NCBI GenBank assembly: GCA_013822265.1
Contig: PNKD01000004.1
Span: 9,183-73,182, forward strand
Direction of reading: 5' to 3'
Length of the DNA stretch: 64,000 bases
DNA from: Leptothrix sp. (in: b-proteobacteria)
GTDB lineage: Bacteria > Pseudomonadota > Gammaproteobacteria > Burkholderiales > Burkholderiaceae_C
Below the pieces are notes generated by a model. The model searched no databases, had not been told where the DNA came from, and was given only the letters and a program-made list of their open reading frames with translations. Each line of letters begins with the position of its first letter. Positions within the stretch are counted from its first letter, which is position 1. Of this stretch, positions 1,724 to 30,798 are shown piece by piece. The position numbers and the translations under genes are program-made.

Positions 1724-2365
1724 TCAGCTGCGCGACGCGCGCCAGCGCACGAGGTCGGCCGGTTCGTCGACGTCCCACAAGGTCTCGAGCTCGCAAACAC
1801 GCAGGCCTGCGGCGCGCGCACGCTCGCGCGTCTCGGCCATCACGGTCGCCGTGCTCCAGGCCATGCCGTCGAACAAGCGCACTTGCGGTCGGCGCAGGCC
1901 CACCATCACGTAGCCGCCGTCCTCGGCGGGCTGGAAGACGGCGTCGGCGCCCGCCAGCAGCGCGCGCGCCGCCTGACGCAGGTGCGCGGGCGTGAGCGGC
2001 GGGCAGTCGGTGCCGGTCAGCAGCAGCGGGCCGTGAGGGCAGTGGTGCTCGAAGGCCGCGTGCATGCGCTGGCCCAGGTCGGCGGCAGGCTGCGCCAGGC
2101 AGGCCACGCCGGTGGCCAGTTGCAGGGCGCGGAAGAAGCGGTGCCGCGCATCCGGCGCGCACCACAGCGTCACGCCGCCCAGGCCGGCGTCGAGGGCGGT
2201 CTGCAGCGTGGCGCGCGTGAACTGGCGCTGCAGCCGCGCCGCGCCCTGCGCGCCCAGCGCCGGGATCAGCCTTGTCTTGGCCTGCCCGGGCACCGGCGCC
2301 TTGGCGAGCACGGCAACCTGCACGCGGTGCAGGTTGCCGGCGTGCGGCGCGGCCGGCGCGGTCAA
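1724..2365 (-). CDS. DUF2064 / TIGR04282 family protein (CofC-like nucleotidyl/glycosyltransferase fold)
   Basis: AKAPVPGQAKTRL, DLGQRM, GTDCP, PAEDGGY and LWDVDEPADL motifs; TTG start overlaps the upstream TGA (TTGA). Confidence 0.85.
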   Translation of the reverse strand: MTAPAAPHAGNLHRVQVAVLAKAPVPGQAKTRLIPALGAQGAARLQRQFTRATLQTALDAGLGGVTLWCAPDARHRFFRALQLATGVACLAQPAADLGQRMHAAFEHHCPHGPLLLTGTDCPPLTPAHLRQAARALLAGADAVFQPAEDGGYVMVGLRRPQVRLFDGMAWSTATVMAETRERARAAGLRVCELETLWDVDEPADLVRWRASRS

Positions 2366-3342
2366 GGGCCTGCCTGTGGCGCCATGGCCTGCTGCGGCAG
2401 GTAGGCCGGCCCGCGCGTGATGCGGTCGAAGTAGGACAGCCACGCCGCCGACCCGGCCGGCCATTGCGCCAGGAACTCGCGCTGCCAGCGCCCGGCGTCG
2501 AAGCGCAGCGGCAGCAGCGCGACATGGACACCGGCCACCTGCACTTCCTGCACCACCGGGTGCGGCGACGGCGTGAGCGCGATGCGCGTGCACAGCCCCG
2601 CCAGATCACCCTTGAAGTTGGGCATGCCGGCGGCGCCGTTGTTGACCACCAGCCCCTCGCGGCCGGGCCCGACGGCCACGCGGCGCAGCGCCGGCAGGCA
2701 GGTGTGGGTGCTGGCGAAGACGTCGACCTCGGCGGCGTCGAACATCTCGCGCTGCCATGGCCGCTGGGCAGCGTCGTCCAGCGCCGCGGCGTCGAAGCGC
2801 CAGCCGGCCAGCGACTCGGCGTCGCCGTGCACCACGCCGACGCGGCAGCCGCCGACCTCGTAGCGCGCCACCATCGGCAGCGCGGCGATGCGGGCGCGCA
2901 GCGCCGGGTGGCGTGCGGCCGTGGCCTTGAGCCGGGCGTGGATGAGGTTGGACCGCTCGACCACGCCGGCGTCGACGCTGTCGGGGTAGGCGCAGCCGCA
3001 GCCGGCGTCGCCCGTCGCGCTGTCGAGTTCGGCCTCGACGTTGCCGAGCACGGCGTCGTGGCCCAGCACGCGGCGGTTGACCTCGGCGAAGTCGGCGTCG
3101 GCGGCGTTGAACCAGTTGAAGTCGCCGTTGAAGCACAGCGTCGGCGCCTGGGTCTCGGCGGCGGCCAGACCTTCGATTTCGGCCAGCGCCGGCAGGTTGC
3201 CGTAGAGGCCGCCGACGACGTAGAGCGTGCCGGCCGGGCGCGGCACGGCGCGCGCGATGGCCGCGGGGCCGTAGCGGTAGCGCAGCGGGCAGGTACGGCC
3301 CGGCAGGCCCGGGGCGTCGATCGGCCGCGTGGCGTGGCTCAC
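2362..3342 (-). CDS. Metallophosphoesterase-fold protein with atypical metal-ligand motifs and a CGCAY motif
   Basis: GGLYGN, NGDFN, GNVE, VHGD and STHT at the positions of the calcineurin-like motifs; 4-nt overlaps with both neighbours. Confidence 0.65.
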   Translation of the reverse strand: MSHATRPIDAPGLPGRTCPLRYRYGPAAIARAVPRPAGTLYVVGGLYGNLPALAEIEGLAAAETQAPTLCFNGDFNWFNAADADFAEVNRRVLGHDAVLGNVEAELDSATGDAGCGCAYPDSVDAGVVERSNLIHARLKATAARHPALRARIAALPMVARYEVGGCRVGVVHGDAESLAGWRFDAAALDDAAQRPWQREMFDAAEVDVFASTHTCLPALRRVAVGPGREGLVVNNGAAGMPNFKGDLAGLCTRIALTPSPHPVVQEVQVAGVHVALLPLRFDAGRWQREFLAQWPAGSAAWLSYFDRITRGPAYLPQQAMAPQAGP

Positions 3343-4082
3343 TTCAGCAAGCCTCGGAGCTGGGCCGGCGTGTGGGCGTCGACGGCGACATCGGCCACCA
3401 AGATGCCGCGGCGCAGCGCGATGGCGCGGTCGGCCAGCCGCGGCAGCAGGTCGAGGTCGTGCACCACGCAGACCAGCGTGGCGCGGCGCTCGGCGGTCAC
3501 ATCGGCCAGCAGGCCGGCGACGTCGTCGGCGGCCTCGGCGTCGAGGCTGGCCGTGGGCTCGTCGGCCAGCAGCAGCGGCCCGCCCTGATGCAGCGCACGG
3601 GCGATGGCCACCTTCTGGCGCTCGCCGCCCGAAAGCGTGTCGGTGCGCCGCTGCGCGGCGGCACCCAGGCCCACGCGAACCAGCGCCGCCTGCGCCGCGC
3701 GACGCTCGGCGGCGGGCCAGCGCCGCAACCAGGTCCAGGGCGAAGCGTGGCGCCCCGCGCCGCCGATGAGCACGTTGTCTATCGCACTCAGCCGGCCCAC
3801 CAGGTGCAGGCCCTGGTGCACCTGCGCCACGCGCGTGCGCAGGCGGCGCAGCGTGGCCGCGGGCCGTGCCGCGGACAGGTCGGTGTCGAGCACCTGCAGG
3901 CGGCCCTGGGTGACGCGGCCAAAGCCCGTCAGCGCGCGCAGCAGCGTCGACTTGCCGGCGCCGTTGTGGCCCACCAGCGCCACGCGCTCGCCGGCGGTGA
4001 TGCGCAGCGCGACGTCGCGCAGCAGCACCTGCGTGGCCACGCTGACCTGCAGGCCTTGCGCCGTGATCACCGCAGTGCTCAT
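3339..4082 (-). CDS. ABC transporter ATP-binding subunit, PhnC-like
   Basis: Walker A GHNGAGKST, signature LSGGERQK, ADEPTASLD; ATG 4082 overlaps the permease TGA. Confidence 0.88.
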   Translation of the reverse strand: MSTAVITAQGLQVSVATQVLLRDVALRITAGERVALVGHNGAGKSTLLRALTGFGRVTQGRLQVLDTDLSAARPAATLRRLRTRVAQVHQGLHLVGRLSAIDNVLIGGAGRHASPWTWLRRWPAAERRAAQAALVRVGLGAAAQRRTDTLSGGERQKVAIARALHQGGPLLLADEPTASLDAEAADDVAGLLADVTAERRATLVCVVHDLDLLPRLADRAIALRRGILVADVAVDAHTPAQLRGLLK

Positions 4083-5020
4083 ACGATGCGCCGGCGCACG
4101 GCCCGGCTGAGTGCGTCGAAGGCCGTGACCATCAGCACGATGGCCAGCAGCAGCGTCGCCAGGCGGCCCCATTGGAAGAGGCTCATCGCCTCCGACAACA
4201 GCAGGCCCAGCCCGCCGGCACCCACCAGCCCGAGGATGGTCGAATCGCGGATGTTGAACTCCCACACGTACAGGGCCTGCGAGACGAACTGCGGCAGCAC
4301 CGCCGGCCACACGCCGAGGAAGAACACCTGGCCCGGCGTGGCACCGGTGGCGCGCACGGCTTGCACCGGCTGCATGTCCAGCGACTCGATGGCCTCGGCC
4401 AGCAGCTTGCCCAGCGTGCCTGCCGAATGCGCGGCCACGGCCAGGATGCCCGCGGTGGCGCCGAGACCGACGATGCCGACGAAGAAAAGGCCGAAGACCA
4501 GCGTGTGGATGGCGCGCAGCACATCCAGCACGCCCTTCGCAGCCCACGACAGCCCGCGCGGCGCGTGCAGGGTGCGCGCCGCCAGCAGGCCCAGAGGCAG
4601 CGCGATCAGCGCCGCCAGCACCGTGCCCAGCGTGGCGATGCGCAGCGTCGTCCACAGCGCGCGGCCCACGCCTTCCAGGTAACGCCGCTCGGTGGCGCGC
4701 TGGTCTTCGACACGCAGCACGCGGCCGTCGGCGTCGCGCACCTGCAGCCCGGTGTCGCCGAACCAGACACGCAGGAAGCTCGGCTCGGACATCTCGGTGA
4801 GGGTCTTGCCCAGGTTCTGCCAGGGCTTGCGGCCCAGGCTCAGCTCGTCCTCGGCGGCCAGCGTCCACAGGCTGGCCAGCACCAGCAAGGCGCAGGCGGC
4901 CAGCAGCATCGGCAGCACGGCCCAGCGCCGGGGTGCCGCACTGCGCGGGCCGCGGGGCAGGGCACATGGCGGGCCGGCGGCGGCGGGCGCGGCGGCGCTG
5001 TCGGTGGGCGGCGCGCTCAC
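4079..5020 (-). CDS. ABC transporter permease, PhnE-like
   Basis: LGKLLAEAIE, EFNIRDSTILGLVGAGGLG motifs characteristic of PhnE/PtxC permeases. Confidence 0.88.
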   Translation of the reverse strand: MSAPPTDSAAAPAAAGPPCALPRGPRSAAPRRWAVLPMLLAACALLVLASLWTLAAEDELSLGRKPWQNLGKTLTEMSEPSFLRVWFGDTGLQVRDADGRVLRVEDQRATERRYLEGVGRALWTTLRIATLGTVLAALIALPLGLLAARTLHAPRGLSWAAKGVLDVLRAIHTLVFGLFFVGIVGLGATAGILAVAAHSAGTLGKLLAEAIESLDMQPVQAVRATGATPGQVFFLGVWPAVLPQFVSQALYVWEFNIRDSTILGLVGAGGLGLLLSEAMSLFQWGRLATLLLAIVLMVTAFDALSRAVRRRIV

Positions 5021-5916
5021 TGTGGCGTCAGTTTCCCGGTGGCCAGGCCGGCGTCGCGAATGGGGCGGTAAAAGGCGTTGTCCTTGGCGACGAAGCCGGT
5101 ATAGCGCGGCGGCAACAGGTTGGGGGTGCGGCGCAACTCGGGGCCGACCGATTCGAGCGCGGCGCGCAGCCTGGCGACGAAGGCCTTGTCCCTGGCCAGT
5201 TCGGCACGCACCGCCACGGCGTCGTTGGGCAACGGGTCGGAGGTCCAGAAGACCACGCTGTCGGCGGCCTTGATCAGGCCCTCGGCGATCATCGCGTCGC
5301 GGTTGCGGTTGTAGTCGGCACCGGCGTCGATCTCGCCGCGCGTCACCTGCAGCTCGATCGCCTGATGTTTCGTGTTGAGCACGCGGCCCAGGTACTTGTC
5401 GGGGTCGATGCCGTTCTTCTGGAAGTGGTGGTAGGGGATCAGGTAGCCCGAGGTCGAACCCTTGTCACCGAAGGCGAAGGTGCGGCCCTTGAGGTCGGCA
5501 ATGCCCCTGATGCCCGACTTGGGGTGGGTGACCATGATCGCGAAGTACTCGGGCTTGCCGTCGTACAGGATCGACGCCACGGCCTGTGCGCCGGCCACGT
5601 GATGGGCCAGCACGTAGCCCCAGGGGCCCATCAGCGCGATGTCGGTCTCGCCGTTGGCCAGCGACTTGGCCAGGCCTTCCCAGGTGTCCACGGTGTAGAG
5701 CTTGACCGGCCGGCCAAGCTGCTTGCTCAGGTGCTCGGCCAGCGGGCGGTAGGTGGCGTCGTTTTTCTCCTTGTCGGGCTGGTAGAGGCCGACACCGAAA
5801 CGCAGCACGTCGTCGGCGGCGAGGGCCGGGGCCGGCATCGTCAGGCCTGACAGCCAAAGTGTGCCCAGTGTCAGCCATCGGGAAACTATCGATAGGCGCG
5901 CGGAAGGGGTCATCAT
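5017..5916 (-). CDS. Phosphate/phosphite/phosphonate ABC substrate-binding protein (PhnD family, HtxB-like)
   Basis: Signal-like N-terminus; GPWGYVL, GDKGSTSGYLIP and LPNDA motifs; exact start uncertain (5916 or 5913). Confidence 0.85.
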   Translation of the reverse strand: MMTPSARLSIVSRWLTLGTLWLSGLTMPAPALAADDVLRFGVGLYQPDKEKNDATYRPLAEHLSKQLGRPVKLYTVDTWEGLAKSLANGETDIALMGPWGYVLAHHVAGAQAVASILYDGKPEYFAIMVTHPKSGIRGIADLKGRTFAFGDKGSTSGYLIPYHHFQKNGIDPDKYLGRVLNTKHQAIELQVTRGEIDAGADYNRNRDAMIAEGLIKAADSVVFWTSDPLPNDAVAVRAELARDKAFVARLRAALESVGPELRRTPNLLPPRYTGFVAKDNAFYRPIRDAGLATGKLTPQ

Positions 5917-6159
5917 GGTCCTGGGGCTGTCGAAATGGTGGGGTCGGACGGGAGCGGGCCGTGCAGTGTGGCGCAAGCGATCAGGGCGCGGCGGCGCCCG
6001 GGTCTTGCGCAGCGGCGTCGCTGCAACGCCAGACCCGGCCTGGAGCGTAGCTGGTGTGCCCGTCATCGACGGCGGGACCACGCCAGTCGTCGCGGCGGGC
6101 CGCTTCTTACAGGCCGCCTGCAGGGCGATCACACCCACTGCCGGGCACCCGCCAAGGGC

Positions 6160-6897
6160 GCGGCGCGAGAACGTGCCCGACGCCGCCACTTTGCTGAAGT
6201 TCCCTGGGCTGACGTTGCGCCGGCTGCCGGAGCAGCACGACATGACGGCAGCGATGGTGGCCGAGGCCAACGCGCACCTGACCGAGCGTGGACCGCTGAT
6301 GCGCCAGGGCACGGTGGTGGACGCCACCATCCGCGCCGCGCCGCACCGAGCTCGACGAAGAACCCGGGGGGCACGGGCAGGGGCAACGGCATGCGCGGCC
6401 GCGAGATGCCCCAGACCAAGAAGGGCAACCCGTGGCATATCGGCATGAAGATGCAGTCGGGCGTAAACGCCGAGTCGGACCCGATCCACAGTGTGGTCTG
6501 CCCGGCGGCGCATGAGGCCGACGTGGCGCACGCGCACGACCTGCTGCATCGACAGGAGAGCCAGGTTCGCGGCGACAGCGGTTACGCCGGGCCGGACAAG
6601 CGAGACGAGAAAGCGAGACGAGATCAAGGCGGCGCAAGTCGAAGGTCGGCTGCGCGAAGACATCGACTGGCGCATCGCCATGAAGCGCGGGCAGATCCAG
6701 GCGATGCGCGAGGGCCCAGCCAAGGCGCTGTACGAGTGGTTCGAGCGGCGCCAGGCCCAGGTGCGTGCCAACGTCTAACACCCGTTCCACGTCATCAAGA
6801 ACCTGTTGCCCTACCGCAGGGCGAGCTGCCGCGAGATCGCCAAGAACCGGACCCGGGCGAAGGCCCAATCTGCGCTGGCCAACCTGTGCATCGCAAG
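6160..6897 (+). pseudogene. IS5-family transposase remnant (5'- and 3'-truncated, frameshifted)
   Basis: IS5 segments spread over three frames: VPDAATLLKF...GTVVDATI, APSSTKN...QTKKGNPWHIGMK...GDSGY, and RANV*HPFHVIKN...LANL; premature TAA at 6776-6778; no terminal IRs found. Confidence 0.85.
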
Positions 6898-6983
6898 GCC
6901 CCAGGCCGTGATGATGCGCCGCGTGCCACAGGCCGGGGCCTGGTGGCCCGCCGTTGGCGCCCCCATTGAGCGAGAGGTTAGGC
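6897..6983 (-). other. Truncated attC site (R'' and left arm only)
   Basis: Minus strand GCCTAAC overlaps the DUF2784 stop, followed by CTCTCGCTCAA...GCCAACGGCGGGCCACC, nearly identical to the attC at 7397-7525; central hairpin present; right arm and GTTRRRY absent. Confidence 0.8.
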
Positions 6984-7379
6984 GCTGTCTCTGCGATTGC
7001 GCCGCGGCGGGAAGCGCCACCATGCCCAGGCCACGAGCAGCCCGAAGCCTGTGTAGACCAGCGTGAAGAGCCACGGTGGCGCCTCGTAGTACAGGGCGCG
7101 GTGAAGCCAGTGTTCGATGAAGCTGCGCTGATACCCGACTTGACCCGTTTGCTCACGGAGCGAGGATTCAAGCAGCGTGAGGGGGCAATACTGGCCCAAC
7201 CAGGCCTGGAGGGCGACTGCGACTATCGCCGCCAGGTGGGCCAGTCGCCACCAGAGGTGGTTCACCCAAGGCCAGGCAAACCTGTTGCCGACGAGAACGA
7301 CCGGGAGCCCCAGGATCACGAAGAGGACGACTCCGAAGTGCAGCAGCAAGACCGCATCTGCGAGGGCTTGGAAGATCAA
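6978..7379 (-). CDS. DUF2784 family membrane protein (integron gene cassette)
   Basis: ADAVLLLH...WRLAHL...CPLTLLE...SFIEHW motif pattern; TTG start after GGGGAA; lies between two attC sites. Confidence 0.8.
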   Translation of the reverse strand: MIFQALADAVLLLHFGVVLFVILGLPVVLVGNRFAWPWVNHLWWRLAHLAAIVAVALQAWLGQYCPLTLLESSLREQTGQVGYQRSFIEHWLHRALYYEAPPWLFTLVYTGFGLLVAWAWWRFPPRRNRRDSA

Positions 7380-7396: not shown

Positions 7397-7525
7397 CGCC
7401 AACTTTCGAGCCGAGGGGGCGCCAGCGGCAGGACGTCGGGCTCTGGCTCGCGAAACTGTACCGCGTACCGCCAGACCAGGCCGGGTGGCCCGCCGTTGGT
7501 GCTGCATTTGAGCGAGGGGTTGGGC
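7397..7525 (-). other. attC site, 129 bp, somewhat degenerate
   Basis: Minus strand begins GCCCAAC (R'') and ends GTTGGCG (R'); imperfect inverted arms (AACGGCGGGC / GTCCTGCCGCT); same family as the 6897-6983 site. Confidence 0.8.
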
Positions 7526-7657
7526 GGCATCCAGCGCGAGTGGGTTGCGACGGCTCTGCACCGGACGTGACCAGGCGATGAAGTCGCTGGCTCCCGTATC
7601 GCCGCGGTGCGGCCAGCCTGTGCGGCGGAGTGTGACTTTGGCGAGGGCACCAAGGCC

Positions 7658-7894
7658 TCACTCCTCCAGGAAGCCAACCTTGAAGATGCGCCGTGGCGTG
7701 CCGTCGTGCAGGTAGAAGTGCCCGTCGGCACGGTTTTCCTTTGCCGGGAAGCAGTCTCCGTACGCCTTGGGAACGGGACACGCAAGTCGGGCTGGCGCGG
7801 CAGGAGAGATCGAACGGTACTGAAGTGGAGCCCCCGAGGGGGCCGTCCGCCAACGGCCCGGCAAATCCGGTTCCGTGGCGGGAAGTGTGGTCAT
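7658..7894 (-). CDS. Hypothetical protein in probable integron cassette (possibly interrupted)
   Basis: AGGA RBS before ATG 7894; frame stays open after TGA 7658-7660 up to the attC R'' box. Confidence 0.4.
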   Translation of the reverse strand: MTTLPATEPDLPGRWRTAPSGAPLQYRSISPAAPARLACPVPKAYGDCFPAKENRADGHFYLHDGTPRRIFKVGFLEE

Positions 7895-7949
7895 GGGTTC
7901 CTGCTTCGGGGGTCGCGGGTGGCGCCAGGCGCGGTGGACGACTGACATG

Positions 7950-7974
7950 AAAAACGCCCCGGTTGCGGGGCGTT
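7950..7974 (-). terminator. Rho-independent terminator after the TonB-dependent receptor
   Basis: AACGCCCC-gcaacc-GGGGCGTT followed by a T run on the minus strand. Confidence 0.75.
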
Positions 7975-8056
7975 GACTGCAGCGGCGTTCGCGCTTCAGG
8001 ACTCGATGGGTCGGCGCGCTTCACGGCGTCGGCGCGCATCGGCCTGACGGCAAGCA

Positions 8057-10165
8057 TCAGAACTTGTAGCTGGCACCGACTTCGAAATTGCGTTCGGCCC
8101 CGGGGAAAATGCCGTCCGGGTTGCGGCTGGCGATGTATTTCTTATCGGCGAGATTGCGCACCGTGCCGAACACGCTGAGCTGCTTGTCGACGGCGTAGTG
8201 CGCGTTGAGGCCGAAGGTGGTGTAGGCCGGGATCACGCCGCGCCGGCCGTCCGCGTTTTCGGCGACGGTGTTTTCCGTATCGACGAACTGGCGTGAGACG
8301 CGATAGGCGCCGAGGCTGGCTTTCAGCCCGCCGACGCGGTAGTTCACGGAAAGATTCGCGGTCAGCTCCGGCGCATAGGGCAGGCGATTGCCGTTGCGGT
8401 CGATGCCGCCGACGATCTTGGTGCCGTTGAATTTGGCGGTGCGCACCCAGGTGGCGTTGGCGTCCACGCCCCAGCCTTCGCCGAGGTCGTAGCCGATCGC
8501 GCCTTCCAGCCCCTGGTTCAGGGTTGCGCCGGCGTTGGTCACTGTTGCGCCGACGCCGCCCGATTCGGATTGCGGCACGATCTGGTTGCCGAAGTCCATG
8601 CGGAAGGCGGTCGCCTCGTAGCTCAACCGTCCCGATGCCCCGCGCACGCCGATTTCGAAGTTTGTCGAGCGCTCGGCGTCCAGATTCTGATCGACGCCGG
8701 AACCGCTGATGGCGGTGGCAACCATCGCTGGCGAGAAACCCTTGAACGCGCCCGCAAACAGTTGCGCCTGCGGTGCGAGCTGCCAGGTCGCGCCGATGCC
8801 GGGCATCACCTCGGTGTTGCTCGCCTTGCCGGAGAGACCGGTCAGCACATCCTTGCGGCTCTGATCGTAGGTTTCGATGCGCAGGCCGGGCGTGATCGCG
8901 ACACGTTCGTTGAGGATGAAACGGTTCTGGCCGTAAAAGGCGATCCCTTGCGCTCGCTGGGTGTCGTCGGTGGTCAGCTCGCCGGAACGCGCGTTGGGAT
9001 TGGTCTTGGAGCGGAGCTTCGTGTTGTTCAGCTTGTCGCTGTGCAGACGGATGCCTATTTCGGCTTCGTTCTTGATGCCCAAGCCGTTGTGGTCGATTTG
9101 CAGGCGGGTGTCCAGGCCCATCATTTCGAAGGTGCGATTGTTGCCGTTCATGCAATAGGCGCTGCCGTCGCAGGGCACGAAGGTCGTGCCGTCGGCGCTG
9201 CGGGCCAGCACTTCCCTGCGCCAAAAATCGCGGGTGAACTGGCTCCAATACAGCAAGGTCTTGAGCTTCACGGAATCGTTGATTTCGAGCTCATGGTTGA
9301 TGTCGAACGAAGTGCGATCGGTCAGGAAATAGTCGTTAGGCGCCGGATTCTTGGTCGGGTTGTCGCGGAATTCGTTGGGGCGCAGGCCGACATAGGAGGT
9401 GTTGACCTTGTTGTCGTAGCGGGTGAACTTGACACCGACCCACTGCTTGTCGCCGATGGCCATGCCGCCCTTGGCCATGATGTCTGTCATCGCGAAAGCG
9501 TTGTTGCGCAAGCCGTCGCCTTCGGCCTTGACTATGCTGATGCCGCCGATGGTCTGGCCCGACGGCGCCTTGCCGCCGGCGTCGAGGCCGATCGAGCGAT
9601 AGCCGCGCGAACCGACCTTGGCGGTCACCTTCGCGCCCTGTTCGGGGTCTTTGGTCTTGTAGTTGATGACGCCGCCGATGGTGGTGGGCCCGTAGCGAAG
9701 CCCGGCTGCGCCCTTCAGCACCTCGATGCTTTGCATGCGCTCGATGCGCGGGCTGTAGTAGGACTCGTTGGCCAGGAACAGGCCGGGTGCGACGGGCACG
9801 CCGTCTTCCAGCACCAGCAGTTTCTGGCTGCGGTTGGGGTTGAGGCCGCGCATGCCGATGTTGGGGATGAAGCCGTAGCCTTCCTCCTCTCGCACCACGA
9901 TGCCCGGGACGGACTTGAGCGCATCCTGGACCGACAGCGGCTGCGTCAGTTCCAGTTTCTTCCCGGTGATGATCGCGACCGAACCGGGCAGCTTGGCGAT
10001 GGCTTCGCCGCCTTCGCCGACCACGTCGATGCGCGGCAGTTCGACCTCGGCGGCGGTACCCAGAGAAGGGAAGATCAGGGCGAGCGCCACAACCAGAGCC
10101 AGCCTTGTTTTGGGAATCTTCTTTGCCGTGCCATGGTGTTCGAAACTGCGGGGGATGCGGTTCAT
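8057..10165 (-). CDS. TonB-dependent outer-membrane receptor, FecA-like iron-uptake type
   Basis: 702 aa; signal peptide, plug region (GMRGLNPNRS, LEDGVP, IEVLKGAAGLRYGP), C-terminal 'GASYKF'. Confidence 0.88.
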   Translation of the reverse strand: MNRIPRSFEHHGTAKKIPKTRLALVVALALIFPSLGTAAEVELPRIDVVGEGGEAIAKLPGSVAIITGKKLELTQPLSVQDALKSVPGIVVREEEGYGFIPNIGMRGLNPNRSQKLLVLEDGVPVAPGLFLANESYYSPRIERMQSIEVLKGAAGLRYGPTTIGGVINYKTKDPEQGAKVTAKVGSRGYRSIGLDAGGKAPSGQTIGGISIVKAEGDGLRNNAFAMTDIMAKGGMAIGDKQWVGVKFTRYDNKVNTSYVGLRPNEFRDNPTKNPAPNDYFLTDRTSFDINHELEINDSVKLKTLLYWSQFTRDFWRREVLARSADGTTFVPCDGSAYCMNGNNRTFEMMGLDTRLQIDHNGLGIKNEAEIGIRLHSDKLNNTKLRSKTNPNARSGELTTDDTQRAQGIAFYGQNRFILNERVAITPGLRIETYDQSRKDVLTGLSGKASNTEVMPGIGATWQLAPQAQLFAGAFKGFSPAMVATAISGSGVDQNLDAERSTNFEIGVRGASGRLSYEATAFRMDFGNQIVPQSESGGVGATVTNAGATLNQGLEGAIGYDLGEGWGVDANATWVRTAKFNGTKIVGGIDRNGNRLPYAPELTANLSVNYRVGGLKASLGAYRVSRQFVDTENTVAENADGRRGVIPAYTTFGLNAHYAVDKQLSVFGTVRNLADKKYIASRNPDGIFPGAERNFEVGASYKF

Positions 10166-10268
10166 TCGATGCTCCTTGAGTCAGATGAATCTGGCTGGCT
10201 TGACGCAAGGCATGCGGCTGGCTGGCTGGTTGAAAGTGGACGGCCTGCGTCCAATGCGTAAACCTGTG

Positions 10269-10691
10269 CTATCGGGTGTGCGGATCGGTGACGAATCCCA
10301 GTTTGCCGAGACCTGCTTTCGCAGCGTCGGCCATGATCCGTGCAACGTGTCTGTAGGCCAGTTCGCCATCGGCGCGGATGTGGATTTCCGGCTGCGGAAT
10401 CTGCTGCGCTGCGGCGTCCATGCGCGACTGCCAGGCGGCGGCATCGACCGCTTGGGCATTCCAGTACACCGAGCCGTCGGCCTGGATCGAAAGACTGATG
10501 GTCTCCGGTTTCACCTCGTTCGGTCGGCTCGAGGCCTGCGGCAGCTCGACCTTGACCGCGTGCGTCATCATGGGCGCGGTGATGATGAAGATGACCAGCA
10601 GCACCAGCATGACGTCGATCAGCGGGATCATGTTGATCTCCGCGTTGTCGCCGTCGCCGCTGTCGTTCGTGAGTCCGCCGAAGGCCATCAT
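10269..10691 (-). CDS. exbD: Biopolymer transport protein ExbD
   Basis: EINMIPLIDVMLVLLVIFII and IRAD motifs; overlaps the exbB stop. Confidence 0.93.
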   Translation of the reverse strand: MMAFGGLTNDSGDGDNAEINMIPLIDVMLVLLVIFIITAPMMTHAVKVELPQASSRPNEVKPETISLSIQADGSVYWNAQAVDAAAWQSRMDAAAQQIPQPEIHIRADGELAYRHVARIMADAAKAGLGKLGFVTDPHTR

Positions 10692-11443
10692 GCGCTCCTG
10701 GCCGCGGGCGCACTGTAGACATGCGCCTCGTCGCTGCGGATGCGGGTGTTGTTGCGCACGCCCGTGGACATGAAGGCGAACAGGTCATGCGCGAAGCCGT
10801 CGGCCTCGGTGAGCATCCGGCGCTTGGCGCGGTTGAAGAAGTTGTAGGCGAGTACCGCGGGGATCGCGACCGCGAGGCCCAGCGCGGTCATGATCAGCGC
10901 CTCGCCGACGGGACCGGCGACCTGGTCGAGGCTGCCGGAGCCCGACATGCCGATGTTGACCAGCGCGTGGTAGATGCCCCACACGGTGCCGAACAGGCCG
11001 ACGAAGGGCGCGGACGACGCGATCGACGCCAGCATGGTGTGGCCGTATTCGAGGCGCGCCGTGTCCTGGCCGATCGCGCGGCGCAGCGCGCGGGTGAGGA
11101 ATTCGTCTTCCGACCCCGACTCGATCAGGCGCTGCCCGGTCTTGTTGCGATACTGCTCGGCCGCCTTGAGCCCGTGGTGGGTGAGGTGCGAGAACGGGTC
11201 GTTGACCCCGTTACGCTGCAGGTAGTCGGCCACCGCCGCAAGACCGGGCGCGTCCCAGAAGCGCGCCAGGAATGCCTGGGCATGTTTTTTCATGCGCCAG
11301 TTGCCAAGGCTCTTGACGACGATGAGCGTCCAGGTGACGACCGACATCGCCAGCAGCACGACGAGCAGGAAGTGCGCGAGGCCGTCGGCCTGCGCGATGA
11401 AGTGGGCCAAGCCCAATTGGGTATGGGTTGCGGTGGTTTCCAT
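10688..11443 (-). CDS. exbB: MotA/TolQ/ExbB proton channel protein
   Basis: LASIASSAPFVGLFGTVWGI and GEALIMTALGLAVAIPA motifs. Confidence 0.93.
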   Translation of the reverse strand: METTATHTQLGLAHFIAQADGLAHFLLVVLLAMSVVTWTLIVVKSLGNWRMKKHAQAFLARFWDAPGLAAVADYLQRNGVNDPFSHLTHHGLKAAEQYRNKTGQRLIESGSEDEFLTRALRRAIGQDTARLEYGHTMLASIASSAPFVGLFGTVWGIYHALVNIGMSGSGSLDQVAGPVGEALIMTALGLAVAIPAVLAYNFFNRAKRRMLTEADGFAHDLFAFMSTGVRNNTRIRSDEAHVYSAPAARSA

Positions 11444-11464
11444 ATCAGCCTATGTCAGTGGATT

Positions 11465-11707
11465 TCAGGCCTCGCGTTGAGCCCGCAAAGCGATGGTTGC
11501 TGGAAGCGGGGCGTGACCAGTACTCAGTCCATTGGCAAACCTCGCGACACCGCAGACGTGCCTTCTGGCCTCAACCCGGAGGGCCAGTGCCATTTGGGGC
11601 GCATTGCGTTGTTGCTCGCGGCCTGTTCGGAATGACCCAACCGCGTCCCTCGCGCCTGGCGCTGCACCCCAAACGGCGCTGGCGCGAGGTATGGAAACTG
11701 CCGACAT
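11465..11707 (-). CDS. Small hypothetical protein between tonB and exbB
   Basis: GGAG RBS immediately after the tonB stop; ORF fills the 270-bp gap almost exactly. Confidence 0.45.
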   Translation of the reverse strand: MSAVSIPRASAVWGAAPGARDAVGSFRTGREQQRNAPQMALALRVEARRHVCGVARFANGLSTGHAPLPATIALRAQREA

Positions 11708-11713
11708 GGGCTC

Positions 11714-12382
11714 CTAACTCCTGAGGGTGAACTGAATCGGCACGATGACCCACGCGGCCACCGGATTGCCACCCTGGCGGGCCGGCTCGAACTTCCAACT
11801 GGATTGCACGGTTTCGATCGCCGATTGGTCGAGGCGTGGATGACCGCTGCTCTTCAGCAGTTCGAGCCGTGCGACGCTGCCGTCCGGATTGACCAGAATG
11901 CTGAGGCGAACCGTGCCCTGCTCGGCCAGGCGGCGCGATAGCGGCGGATACGGCGGCCTGGGGTTGTTCAGGTAATCCGCCGGACGCGGAGCGGTGGGCG
12001 GCGGCGCGGCGGGCCTGGGCATCACCGCCACCGGTGCAGTTGCGGGCAGCTTCTCCGGCACGGGTTCATGCGCCGGCTCGGGGGCCTCGATCACCGTCTG
12101 CGGCGTGGGCAGCGGACGCTCGGCCGCCAGCACGGCCGCGGGCGGCAGCGGCTTGGCCACCGGTCGGGACGGCTGAGGCACGGGTTCCGGCCGGGGCGCT
12201 TCGATCGCGGGTTCGATCAGGCTCACCATCAGGGGGCGCGGCAGCGAAATCAGCCCGGCGGCTCGGGGCATCTGGAGCAGCGCGGCCAACAGGGCGGCAT
12301 GCGCGAGCGCCACCCCCGCCAGCACGCCGGCGGGCAGGCGCTGCGTGTCGGGCTGTGTTCCGGCGCGCGACGGCGACATCAA
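11714..12382 (-). CDS. tonB: Energy transducer TonB
   Basis: N-terminal TM, Pro-rich linker, C-terminal PPYPPLSRRLAEQGTVRL...SSGHPRLDQSA...FTL domain. Confidence 0.92.
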   Translation of the reverse strand: MMSPSRAGTQPDTQRLPAGVLAGVALAHAALLAALLQMPRAAGLISLPRPLMVSLIEPAIEAPRPEPVPQPSRPVAKPLPPAAVLAAERPLPTPQTVIEAPEPAHEPVPEKLPATAPVAVMPRPAAPPPTAPRPADYLNNPRPPYPPLSRRLAEQGTVRLSILVNPDGSVARLELLKSSGHPRLDQSAIETVQSSWKFEPARQGGNPVAAWVIVPIQFTLRS

Positions 12383-12597
12383 AAGGCTGCCGCTTTGTTG
12401 AAGGCGTTCGCGAACGACGCTTCGTCATTGCGCAGTTCCAGTTCGTCGACCAGGCTCAGGCAGGCCTCCCGCTCGGCAGGGCTCAACTCGGAGCTCTGGG
12501 CTGCGCGGGCGAGCAGCATCGCGGCGGTGATCCGGTTGCGGGTGAAGGGCCGGCCCAGCATGACCAAGGCGGCAACGAGAAGCGAGGCGGGATGCAT
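12379..12597 (-). CDS. Small hypothetical protein (72 aa)
   Basis: AAGGAAG RBS; stop overlaps the tonB start. Confidence 0.55.
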   Translation of the reverse strand: MHPASLLVAALVMLGRPFTRNRITAAMLLARAAQSSELSPAEREACLSLVDELELRNDEASFANAFNKAAAF

Positions 12598-12636
12598 GGT
12601 CTTCCTTTCGGTGGCTGCGGAAACTGGGCCGGGTGA

Positions 12637-12828
12637 CTACTTGGTCAGGATCAGCTTGCCGCTCTTGGTGATGCGCAGCCGGTAGGTTTCGCCTTGGTGG
12701 TCGATCAGGATCTCCTGGCGGCCCTGGAACAAACGGTCTGTCCGGATGCTCCCCGGCGCGCAGGTGCGCGATTCGTGTTCGACCGGAAGCGATGGCCAGG
12801 CTGTGGAGGCAGGTATATCGGCGCGCAT
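12637..12828 (-). CDS. hemP: Hemin uptake protein HemP/HmuP
   Basis: LFQGRQEILIDHQGETYRLRITKSGKLILTK is the HemP signature. Confidence 0.92.
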   Translation of the reverse strand: MRADIPASTAWPSLPVEHESRTCAPGSIRTDRLFQGRQEILIDHQGETYRLRITKSGKLILTK

Positions 12829-12881
12829 GAAGTGGCGTGATCGGCGCGGGTTGCGGCGGTTGTTATGCGTAAGATGATGCA

Positions 12882-12900
12882 AACGATAACCATTCGCATT
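12882..12900. promoter_or_regulatory. Fur box
   Basis: Minus strand AATGCGAATGGTTATCGTT matches the AATGAGAATGATTATCATT-type Fur consensus, ~55 bp upstream of hemP. Confidence 0.8.
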
Positions 12901-12941
12901 CAAAAATGCAAGCGGTGCGCGTGAATATGGGAGAACGCGGG

Positions 12942-13466
12942 TCAGGACTGCCGGGGGTGGCGCCCGCGCAGCCGCGGCTGGGCCGTCAGCGCTTTGGGCC
13001 GCCGGGTGATGTGCCGGATGGCGTGGTGCGCGTCCACGATCCGGCGCGCGGGGGGCGAGAAATTCCGGCCAGCCGGCCGATCGCGCCATTCGAAGTGCCC
13101 CGACAGCGCGACGCTGCCGGGTGACAGCGTCCACACGTGCAGGTCGTGCGTCCGCAGCACGCCGGGCAGGGCGACCAGGTTGCGGCCGACGGCATCGAAC
13201 CGGACATTGAGCGGGACGCCCTCCATCGGCACATGCAGCACTTCGCGCAGCCACCGCAGCGCCGATGCGGGTATCAGCGTCGCCGCCAGAAGCGAAAGCA
13301 GCGGATCGATCGGCGCCCAGTCGGTGGTGGCGAAGACGATGCCGGCGATGATCGCCGCGACCGATCCGAACACGTCGCCCAGCACGCGAAGAAGCGCGGC
13401 GCGACTGTTGAGGGTCAGCTCGCCGCGATGCAGGATCCAGGCGACGAATCAGGTTCACGATGAGGC
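12942..13466 (-). pseudogene. C-terminal fragment of a CzcD/ZitB cation diffusion facilitator
   Basis: GLIVNL/(+1 shift)FVAWILH...RAALLRVLGDVFGSVAAII...IDPLLS...MEGVP...HDLHVWTLS; N-terminal half absent. Confidence 0.8.
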
Positions 13467-13495
13467 CGTGAAAACTTTCGCCCGCCGGGTGCTTG
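13462..13495 (-). other. Candidate attI remnant / junction
   Basis: Expected attI position just upstream of intI; minus strand GGCGGGCGAAA-GTT-TTCAC, then czcD-like sequence; no canonical GTTRRRY. Confidence 0.35.
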
Positions 13496-13517
13496 CTCAG
13501 GCGGGGACATGCTGATA

Positions 13518-13533
13518 CTGTATAAACATACAG
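13518..13533. promoter_or_regulatory. LexA (SOS) box in the intI promoter
   Basis: CTGT-ATAAACAT-ACAG, exact CTGT-N8-ACAG, 22 bp before the intI ATG. Confidence 0.92.
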
Positions 13534-14745
13534 TTTTCCGTGTCCAGGGGGTTCCATGCACCATGCAGCCGAAGCGCCACCGTCGTCCTTGGCCGCGCCT
13601 GCCGCCAGCCCCCGCCTGCTCGATGCCCTGCGCCAGCAGATCCGCTACCTGCACTACAGCCTGCGTACCGAAGACGCCTACGTGCACTGGGTGCGTGCCT
13701 TCGTGCGCTTTCATCGCCTGCGTCATCCTGCCGATCTCGGGCATGCCGAGGTCGAGGCCTTTCTCTCCTGGCTGGCCGAAGACCGCCAAGTCGCCCCGGC
13801 CACGCACCAGCAGGCGCTGTCGGCGCTGCTCTTTCTCTACCAGAAGGTGCTGCGGCAGGACCTGCCGTGGATGGGCGAGATCGGCCGCCCGAAGGGCGAG
13901 AGGCGCCTGCCCGTGGTGCTGTCGGTGGCCGAGGTGACTGCCGTGCTGGCCCATCTCGATGCGCACGCGCTGCATTCGGGCATGCCGCATGGTGTCGTCG
14001 GGCGGCTGCTCTACGGCACCGGCATGCGCCTGCTCGAAGGTCTGCGGCTGCGTGTGAAGGACATCGACTTCGATCGCCGCGCCATCGTCGTGCGCGAAGG
14101 CAAGGGCACCAAAGACCGCGTCGTGATGCTGCCGGCCGCGCTCGAGGCGCCCTTGCGCGCCCAACTGGCGCAGGCGCACGAGGTCTGGGCGGCCGACCGC
14201 GCTGCGGATGTGCAGGGCGTGCACGTGCCGCACGCGCTGGCGCGCAAGTACCCGCGGGCGGCCTTGTCCTGGGCCTGGCACTGGGTCTTCCCGCAGGGCA
14301 AGTTGTCGATGGACCCGCGTGGCCCCGGCGAGCGCCGCCACCACTTCCTGGAAGGCAACTTCCAGCGTGCCTTCAAGCGCTCGCTCGACGCGGCGCACAT
14401 CCACAAGCCGGCGTCGCCGCACACCTTGCGCCATTCCTTCGCCACCCACCTGCTGCAGGCCGGCTACGACATCCGCACCGTGCAGGAACTGCTGGGCCAC
14501 GCCGACGTCAGCACGACCATGATCTACACGCACGTGCTGCGGCTGGGCGGCGGGGCCGTGCGCAGCCCGCTCGACAGCATGACGCCCGGCGCCGGCCCGG
14601 CCCCCGGTGCCTTCGCCGGGCCCCACGGCGCGGCTGCTGCGGCGGCCGACGCTGCCCCCATCGCCCCGCGGCGTTTCGACCTGCCCGACATGCCGGCCAG
14701 CCGCCCGCCGCGCGCGCGTGAACCCGAACCCTGCTACGCCCTGCC

Positions 14746-18225
<3,480 letters not shown>

Positions 18226-30608: not shown

Positions 30609-30681
30609 TTCAGCCGAGGTACATGATTTGGCCGACCAAGCTTCCCGCCGCGGATCCGGCTCCGCCGGTCCGTCGGCGGAC

Positions 30682-30798
30682 GGCCCCCCTGGGGGGGTGA
30701 GCCGGCGCCGAGCCAGCGCCTGCGCGCTGGCGAGTGGCCGACGAACGCCTGGCCGCCTGCAAGCGGCCAGGCAGCGAGCGCAAGCGAGCTTGGGGGCC
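30682..30798. repeat. REP-like palindromic element (expanded copy) between fliL and fliM
   Basis: GGCCCCCCT-GGGGGGGTGAGC...GCGAGCGCAAGCGAGCTTGGGGGCC with internal hairpin CCTGGCCGC/GCGGCCAGG; related to 56599-56638. Confidence 0.55.

Follow-up and report, generated by a model that had tools for sequence, protein, structure and literature searches.

Rearrangements near the attI recombination site of integrons are described by Cury et al. (2016; PMC4889954) as leaving an In0 plus a CALIN. Recombination by the integron integrase, IntI, away from its proper targets, at secondary or attG sites, is reported by Loot et al. (bioRxiv 10.1101/2022.09.11.507474). In the current study, we characterized an iron-uptake block of about 5.5 kb that lies between the integrase gene, intI, and the attC sites of a cassette array in Leptothrix sp. 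The behavior of IntI at secondary sites is said to have been studied earlier by Francia in 1993 and by Recchia in 1994. The DNA analyzed is a 64-kb stretch (the window) of a 78-kb contig, and the genome to which it belongs (the window genome, G000) is a 251-contig draft of 4.38 Mb, probably a metagenome bin. We consider it likely that the block arose by ordinary horizontal acquisition of Thiobacillus-like DNA into a degraded chromosomal integron, where it replaced the attI site and a neighboring gene, orfX, and that it did not enter through attI. Events of this kind are already known, and the window locus is a further example of them.

Gene content and origin of the iron-uptake block

The block (7953-13468) holds, in minus-strand order, a czcD fragment, a Fur-box-like site, hemP, orf72, tonB, a 270-nt spacer, exbB, exbD, a receptor gene and a terminator (Table 1). 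All six genes are full length when compared with donors, and the TonB-dependent uptake set is complete, with Pfam matches for the receptor, TonB, ExbB and ExbD. An earlier note on this DNA had listed hemP, tonB, exbB, exbD and the receptor with coordinates that proved essentially right, and it correctly saw a terminator, a base composition richer in A and T than that of the flanking host genes, and a cassette-like orientation. The terminator is a strong intrinsic one at 7974-7953, and the block genes all lie on the minus strand, which is the cassette strand, divergent from intI. Its two small open reading frames (ORFs) fared differently: orf72 has donor homology, and its DNA is kept in one metagenome relative (L128), whereas the other has none. 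Its "FecA-like" label for the receptor holds, on profile matches, in the loosest sense only. The protein is a TonB-dependent receptor of siderophore type that passes the siderophore-receptor subfamily model TIGR01783 (233 bits; cut-off 223.5), but it fails the FecA equivalog NF041676 (167 bits against a cut-off of 1100), the match beginning at profile position 129 and leaving the FecA N-terminal region uncovered. No FecI/FecR-type family was found among the block genes in Pfam and NCBIfam scans, which covered those genes and not the flanks. The proposed Fur box does correspond to a Fur-box-like site, in an AT-richer intergenic stretch upstream of hemP, but this matches the consensus at only 13 of 19 positions. 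Together with hemP and the protein families, this match suggests Fur control and an iron-chelate or haem substrate.

The closest relatives of the receptor, sought in one genome per species and then in metagenome contigs, are in Thiobacillus (86-87% amino acid identity). The metagenome scan found nothing above 86% amino acid identity and no closer donor. ExbB, ExbD and the receptor share 84-92% amino acid identity with their Thiobacillus counterparts; TonB shares 59-63% over its full length and, at one locus, 85% over its last 87 residues. At the DNA level, identity to several Thiobacillus loci is 85-89% over 8030-11443 (beginning, depending on the locus, at 8028-8059, just beyond the receptor stop codon, and reaching the start of exbB), about 73% in tonB and 77% in the czcD fragment. 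The native order czcD-hemP-tonB-exbB-exbD-receptor occurs, in the same orientation, in Thiobacillus sp. 65-1059 (L066), and czcD and hemP also adjoin in a second Thiobacillus (L060). The guanine-plus-cytosine (GC) content of the block is 65.4%, vs. 70.2% for the genome and 71.5% for the remainder of the window; that of the donor loci is 60-65%. In a set of 60 congeneric genomes, the receptor was found in none at E<=1e-100, and intI was found in 44. Because of this DNA identity and gene order, the lower GC content and the failure to find the receptor in congeners, the block is a horizontally acquired piece of a Thiobacillus-like chromosome, and the view of the earlier note that a chromosomal block had been captured from another lineage is upheld in that sense. 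Since the intI-proximal 0.5 kb or so of the block is a czcD remnant that is truncated and frameshifted (by a 1-nt deletion near 13446-13449), the block is a piece torn from a chromosome rather than a tidy module.

Two observations on relatives of the block genes may be added. Aquabacterium commune DSM 11901, a high-GC betaproteobacterium, carries the same receptor (L120, 609-2615; 81% identity) without tonB-exbBD, which hints that the receptor gene may also travel horizontally alone. In a relative of the window genome (G011), the first integron cassette (L049, 6288-6485) is a TonB C-terminal-domain-like ORF with 38% identity over 68 amino acids to the window TonB.

A foreign block in a draft assembly could also be an artefact, in which a Thiobacillus fragment from the same community was stitched into the host contig. 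The 251 contigs and the probable origin of the assembly as a metagenome bin lend this some weight, as does the frequency of Thiobacillus-like DNA in the same kinds of sample. Nevertheless, two independent false joins would be needed within one 78-kb contig, and host-type sequence lies on both sides of the block, with attC sites and a dispersed repeat resembling repetitive extragenic palindromic (REP) elements on the left and the intI promoter (PintI), intI and dnaE2 on the right. The 55-nt repeat is GC-rich (CCCCCGAGGGGGCCGTCCGCCAACGGCCCGGCAAAKCCGGTTCCGTGGCGGGAAG), and has at least 40 copies in the window genome; of 25 congeners, 19 carry it, with as many as about 40 copies, whereas it was found in none of five Thiobacillus genomes. 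Because it belongs to the host lineage, we take the stretch that it occupies to be host-type DNA. Moreover, the block is decayed, as the czcD frameshift attests, its 270-nt spacer occurs in no Thiobacillus locus, and its GC content exceeds that of the matching donor loci. A chimeric contig is very unlikely on these grounds. A second copy of the repeat in the window lies at 30634-30695 (C4:39816-39877).

The attI site of the genus and its absence from the window genome

Alignment of the regions upstream of intI failed to reveal attI, since only the LexA box and the -35 hexamer are conserved there, and the site was located by way of orfX, a previously undescribed gene. Thirteen species share a platform composed of intI, a LexA box, orfX, attI and cassettes. 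In one of these relatives (G012), eight 132-nt attC sites abut intI, a divergent orfX of 123 codons is the element next to the LexA box, and some 80 nt past the orfX stop codon the cassettes start, at TCGAAAACACG|TTAGGC. Homologues of orfX adjoin intI in all 13 species, and in each of them AACACG|TTAGGC or a near match is found 60-170 nt downstream, followed by cassette-like sequence; the core is exact in 11 and carries one mismatch in the other two (ATCACG in one, GCACGTTATGC in one). By its position and conservation, AACACG|TTAGGC is identified here as the attI crossover site of the genus. In one locus (L044), orfX lies at 5837-6205 and attI at 5749-5760, and the same platform is seen in L022, L024, L026-L030, L033-L036, L038 and L039. 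The orfX product, of 110-123 amino acids, falls into no family of Pfam or NCBIfam; it carries a GARWD..K.W motif at its C terminus and matches DUF5710 weakly, and its structure model (mean predicted local distance difference test score 66) is too weak for a fold search.

The window genome has lost both elements. orfX was found neither in the window nor elsewhere in the assembly. The AACACGTTAGGC motif is absent from the window, and the assembly holds three one-mismatch matches (on C8, C55 and C68), none with integron context and the one on C68 clearly coding. A search of the window with a profile built from the 70 nt that precede the attI crossover likewise gave no match. Because the genome is without both orfX and attI, the block has taken their place and was not integrated or captured at attI. 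The earlier note had put the block between the attI position and the first attC; it does lie between intI and the first attC, but the genome has no attI position. In the synteny comparison, the receptor was not found in the 60 congeners and attI sits next to cassettes in 13 relatives.

Loss of this region is not confined to the window genome. On the IntI tree, the lineages without orfX (G000, G058+G006, G075, G066, G004+G052 and G024) are scattered among those that carry it, a distribution that implies at least five independent losses of orfX-attI. For G066 and G004 the contig ends near intI, and the absence of orfX is less secure. In the other relatives with upstream sequence (G058, G006, G024, G052 and G075), ordinary non-cassette genes reach up to the LexA-boxed promoter and no attC was detected. 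Wherever the locus of a relative extends far enough downstream, dnaE2 comes directly after intI. The pair shares a single LexA-boxed promoter, and intI is intact even where orfX, attI and cassettes have been lost, which suggests that it is retained because it is transcribed together with dnaE2. Most simply, the cassette side would have been repeatedly deleted or overwritten, selection guarding only the promoter-intI-dnaE2 unit. A junction a few tens of bases from the promoter is what such selection would leave, whatever the mechanism.

Junctions of the block and routes of arrival

Alignment with three donor czcD genes places the start of czcD homology at GGCCTC (13467) or at the base before it (13468), 25 nt beyond the -35 hexamer of PintI. 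On the other side, the left breakpoint falls within 7886-8028. A GTT triplet, which had been taken for a crossover, stands close to the right breakpoint, and the earlier note had suggested capture of the block at the head of the array, possibly by IntI acting on a secondary site. According to this explanation, attI or attC recombined with a secondary GNT site in the donor czcD, which would make the block a giant first cassette, able to be excised again together with attC1, the complete attC site, under SOS control. In its favor, the integrase gene is undamaged and has an SOS box, and the block shares the strand of the cassettes and is flanked by intI and an attC that looks functional. In addition, a GTT that follows CGAAAG, just like the TT of the R' end of attC1 (CGAAAG|TTGGCG), is found 5-7 nt away from the point where czcD breaks off. 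Off-target recombination by IntI at secondary or attG sites is, moreover, documented in two studies (PMC4889954; bioRxiv 10.1101/2022.09.11.507474).

Against this stands first the loss of both attI and orfX, which an event at attI would have kept. Second, IntI crosses over at G|TT, so that everything 3' of the G should be donor sequence, with no filler. Instead, seven nucleotides (TTTTCAC) separate GTT from the start of czcD homology; they match the donor sequences (GATCATC, GCCATC and GATGATC) at about two of seven positions, where about 77% would be expected, and they would turn a conserved isoleucine into histidine. Because this non-donor filler lies between GTT and the czcD homology, GTT is unlikely to be an IntI crossover. 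Third, the far end of the block shows no attC or attI half-site, no hybrid site and no 5' part of czcD, such as would remain from a circular intermediate opened at an internal site, and about 430-500 nt, including the host REP-like repeat, separate the terminator from attC1. Finally, the block brings its own promoter region and terminator. The identity of CGAAAGTT at the junction with the 3' end of attC1 extends over only 8 nt, a length too short to count as evidence, and was spotted after the site had been inspected. A donor czcD reading G|TTTTCACGGCCTC at the breakpoint would, if found, make GTT a true crossover; likewise, a donor with GTTTTCAC at the breakpoint codon would fit an IntI crossover and a GCGATCATC-like sequence would not, the known Thiobacillus genes reading A-I-G-L. 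We therefore regard capture by IntI as unlikely. Had it held, the locus would have shown that integrons can in nature take up an operon of several genes with its own regulation, with a bearing on the origin of cassettes.

The properties of the block also differ from those of a cassette, as it has no G|TT crossover with attI or a preceding attC at its 5' end, no attC of its own directly after its ORFs, and a terminator and promoter region of its own. As for the platform, IntI is present and attC lies in cassette orientation, and no attI adjoins intI. The block is not a cassette and is not mobilizable through attI. Because attI is gone, the excision by attI x attC of a 6-kb "super-cassette" under SOS control, which the earlier note had raised as a possibility, is impossible. 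A different role for IntI can be imagined, in which the junction at 13469-13475 is the scar of an off-target reaction that joined an attC-like CGAAAG|TT end to foreign DNA and was then altered by local mutation; IntI would thereby have destroyed its own attI and imported the operon, which might still move at low frequency under SOS by attC1 x secondary-site recombination. We judge this decidedly unlikely. Judging from their sequences, IntI and attC1 look functional and rare attC x secondary-site events are conceivable, and nothing in the sequence points to such events as the source of the block or as able to mobilize it.

Delivery by a transposon, a composite insertion sequence (IS) or an integrative island with its own recombinase is extremely unlikely. 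The locus does contain an IS5-family remnant, but this is single-copy and degenerate, and two attC sites and a cassette stand between it and the block. Neither matching inverted repeats nor target duplications, which the earlier note had named as the marks of ordinary transposition, were seen at the block ends, and no transposase, integrase or tRNA gene lies within or at the ends of 7886-13468. A 28-nt direct repeat (12981-13008 and 13464-13491; 22 of 28 identical) was set aside, as by our own estimate chance alone should produce some two to three such pairs over 6 kb of DNA this rich in GC.

Because neither IntI nor a transposon has left its signature at the ends, illegitimate recombination is favored by exclusion. 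In the acquisition that we prefer, about 5.5 kb comprising the 3' half of czcD, the Fur-box-type promoter region, hemP, orf72, tonB, exbB, exbD, the receptor gene and probably the terminator would have been acquired. The DNA would have arrived or been fixed by illegitimate recombination without attI, in one or several insertion/deletion steps that removed orfX, attI and probably the proximal cassettes and spared the LexA-controlled intI-dnaE2 promoter. The block would now act as an autonomous iron-acquisition operon, repressed by Fur at high iron, in which TonB-ExbB-ExbD energize the receptor.

Several points weigh against this account. The mechanism rests on absent IntI and transposon signatures and not on a positive one. 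The best donor match is just 85-89%, so that the true donor is unsampled. The closest IntI is 77% identical (81% by tblastn, residues 1-342), and without a closer relative or donor the left end of the block is placed no more finely than 7886-8028; Thiobacillus homology ends at 8028-8044. The host genome is a draft in 251 contigs. Lastly, the Fur-box-like site at 12879-12897, with 13 of 19 matches to the 19-mer consensus, shares the top score in the window and is not a strong match.

The remnant array, the integrase unit and known integrons

The features of the locus are collected in Table 1.

Table 1. Features of the integron remnant, the iron-uptake block and the integrase unit (window coordinates).
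Feature	Position	Strand	Evidence
Degenerate IS5-family transposase remnant; right end cuts attC2	5900-6919	+	Pfam DDE_Tnp_1; three-frame translation
attC2, R''-L'' half only (6983 to ~6919), rest replaced by IS remnant	6863-6983	-	Covariance model, 37.8 bits
DUF2784 gene cassette; stop codon within attC2 inverse core GCCTAAC	6978-7379	-	Pfam PF10861, E=1.4e-30
attC1, complete: R'' GCCCAAC, L'' CTCGCTCAA, L' GCTCGAAAG, R' GTTGGCG	7397-7525	-	Covariance model, 85.2 bits, E=1e-21
Orphan spacer between attC1 and host repeat	7526-7830		No blastn or meaningful tblastx match in relatives or donors
REP-like dispersed repeat	7831-7885		No Rfam family
Intrinsic terminator after receptor gene	7974-7953	-	9-bp stem, 7 G-C pairs, T-run
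TonB-dependent (siderophore-type) outer-membrane receptor, 702 aa, full length	8057-10165	-	Pfam Plug and barrel; TIGR01783
exbD	10269-10691	-	Pfam PF02472; 88% aa identity to Thiobacillus
exbB	10688-11443	-	Pfam PF01618; 89-92% aa identity to Thiobacillus
tonB-exbB spacer, 270 nt	11444-11713		Non-conserved; 6-nt gap in Thiobacillus
tonB	11714-12382	-	Pfam TonB_C
orf72, 72 codons; 4-nt overlap with tonB start	12379-12597	-	No known family
hemP, 63 aa	12637-12828	-	Pfam PF10636, E=5e-18
Overlapping Fur-box-like sites upstream of hemP	12879-12903		13/19 and 12/19 to consensus
czcD pseudogene remnant, 3' ~175 codons (from GLIVNLI)	12942-13468	-	Pfam Cation_efflux and ZT_dimer, both below cut-off
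Junction stretch, czcD remnant to LexA box: PintI -35 TTGCTC (13493-13498), GTT (13475-13473)	13469-13515		Alignment
LexA box, perfect, TACTGT-N8-ACAG	13516-13533		Unique in window; conserved upstream of intI across genus
intI, intact integron integrase, 414 aa; end overlaps dnaE2 start	13556-14800	+	NF011946; TIGR02249; alignment to 2A3V
dnaE2, error-prone polymerase	14746-18225	+	NF004225; synteny

The integron around the block is a relic in which intI is still intact and two attC sites survive, one of them complete and the other interrupted by an IS that is itself dead. The attC sites were identified with a covariance model trained on nine sites, and the whole assembly was also scanned with nhmmer; beyond attC1 and attC2, none was found in the 4.38 Mb. 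The block holds no internal attC, as the earlier note had stated: in the window, the model finds attC1 and attC2 and, besides them, a match in the czcD remnant (13166-13224; 16 bits, E=0.11) that we treated as due to chance. The bottom strand of attC1 folds into one long hairpin (-65 kcal/mol) and was aligned with the eight G012 sites; attC2 is supported by a direct repeat shared with attC1 and by sequence comparison with the same G012 sites. The IS5-family remnant, in which several frameshifts and a stop codon have split the motifs over different frames, forms the distal end of the surviving array and adjoins an operon for a phosphonate-binding protein and ABC transporter (~1724-5880). The orphan spacer next to attC1 may be what remains of that site's own cassette. 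An ORF called 'orf96' (7658-7948) is probably not a gene, since 7658-7897 has no homologue among 5.8 billion proteins and overlaps the REP-like repeat. No Rfam family matched anywhere in the window, and the 270-nt tonB-exbB spacer is unique, with no repeat copies in the genome.

On the other side of the block, IntI passes both integron integrase models (NF011946, 458 bits, cut-off 435; TIGR02249, 442 bits, cut-off 265) and its alignment to VchIntIA (2A3V) spans the whole protein and shows both the insert specific to IntI and all the catalytic residues (R, K, HxxR, H and Y). A database look-up gave no protein record identical to it, and metagenome contigs gave no match to the 24-nt LexA-box/promoter pattern. 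A promoter-like site on the cassette strand (TGGACA-18-TACAGT, 13546-13517) overlaps the LexA box; as a matter of speculation, it would serve orfX in the relatives and here, facing the czcD remnant, could give SOS-dependent read-through.

Taken as a whole, the evidence shows the commoner course of events, in which a chromosomal integron erodes and is overwritten by horizontally acquired DNA, and it documents the transfer of an iron-uptake operon from Thiobacillus to a high-GC host. It also shows that adjacency to intI is an unsafe proxy for attI. The real attI and a conserved orfX are now defined for the integron platform of this genus, which has lost orfX-attI repeatedly while the LexA-controlled intI-dnaE2 unit stayed. 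An accessory gene inside an integron platform is possibly worth a separate study.

When compared with its Thiobacillus counterpart, the czcD-hemP-tonB-exbB-exbD-receptor locus, the window block alone has a truncated, frameshifted czcD and the 270-nt tonB-exbB spacer, and it sits in a different host, of 70% GC. In principle, IntI acting off target could link DNA of the integron with a GNT site of a foreign gene, and such reactions can cause chromosomal deletions; unlike the products of recombination at secondary or attG sites, however, the block ends without an attC or attI half-site, and GTT lies off the homology breakpoint. With the sedentary chromosomal integrons of Vibrio cholerae (VchIntIA; PDB 2A3V), the locus shares a LexA box over the intI promoter and a full-length IntI with its insert, and the relatives of the window genome resemble integrons of this type in their long, homogeneous attC sites. 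Unlike them, the window locus lacks attI and keeps one complete and one truncated attC, and this genus has a conserved orfX between intI and attI and an intI that overlaps dnaE2. The locus also matches the In0 plus CALIN arrangement (IntegronFinder) described in PMC4889954, as here, too, the integrase has no adjacent attC, a small cluster of attC sites on the expected strand lies more than 4 kb away, and an IS is present in the array; in the window, the IS-damaged cluster lies 6 kb from the In0-like integrase. It differs in that intI is intact, probably owing to the promoter that it shares with dnaE2. In addition, the DNA that separates integrase and array is identified here, as a 5.5-kb foreign operon, and the loss of attI is shown against 13 congeners.

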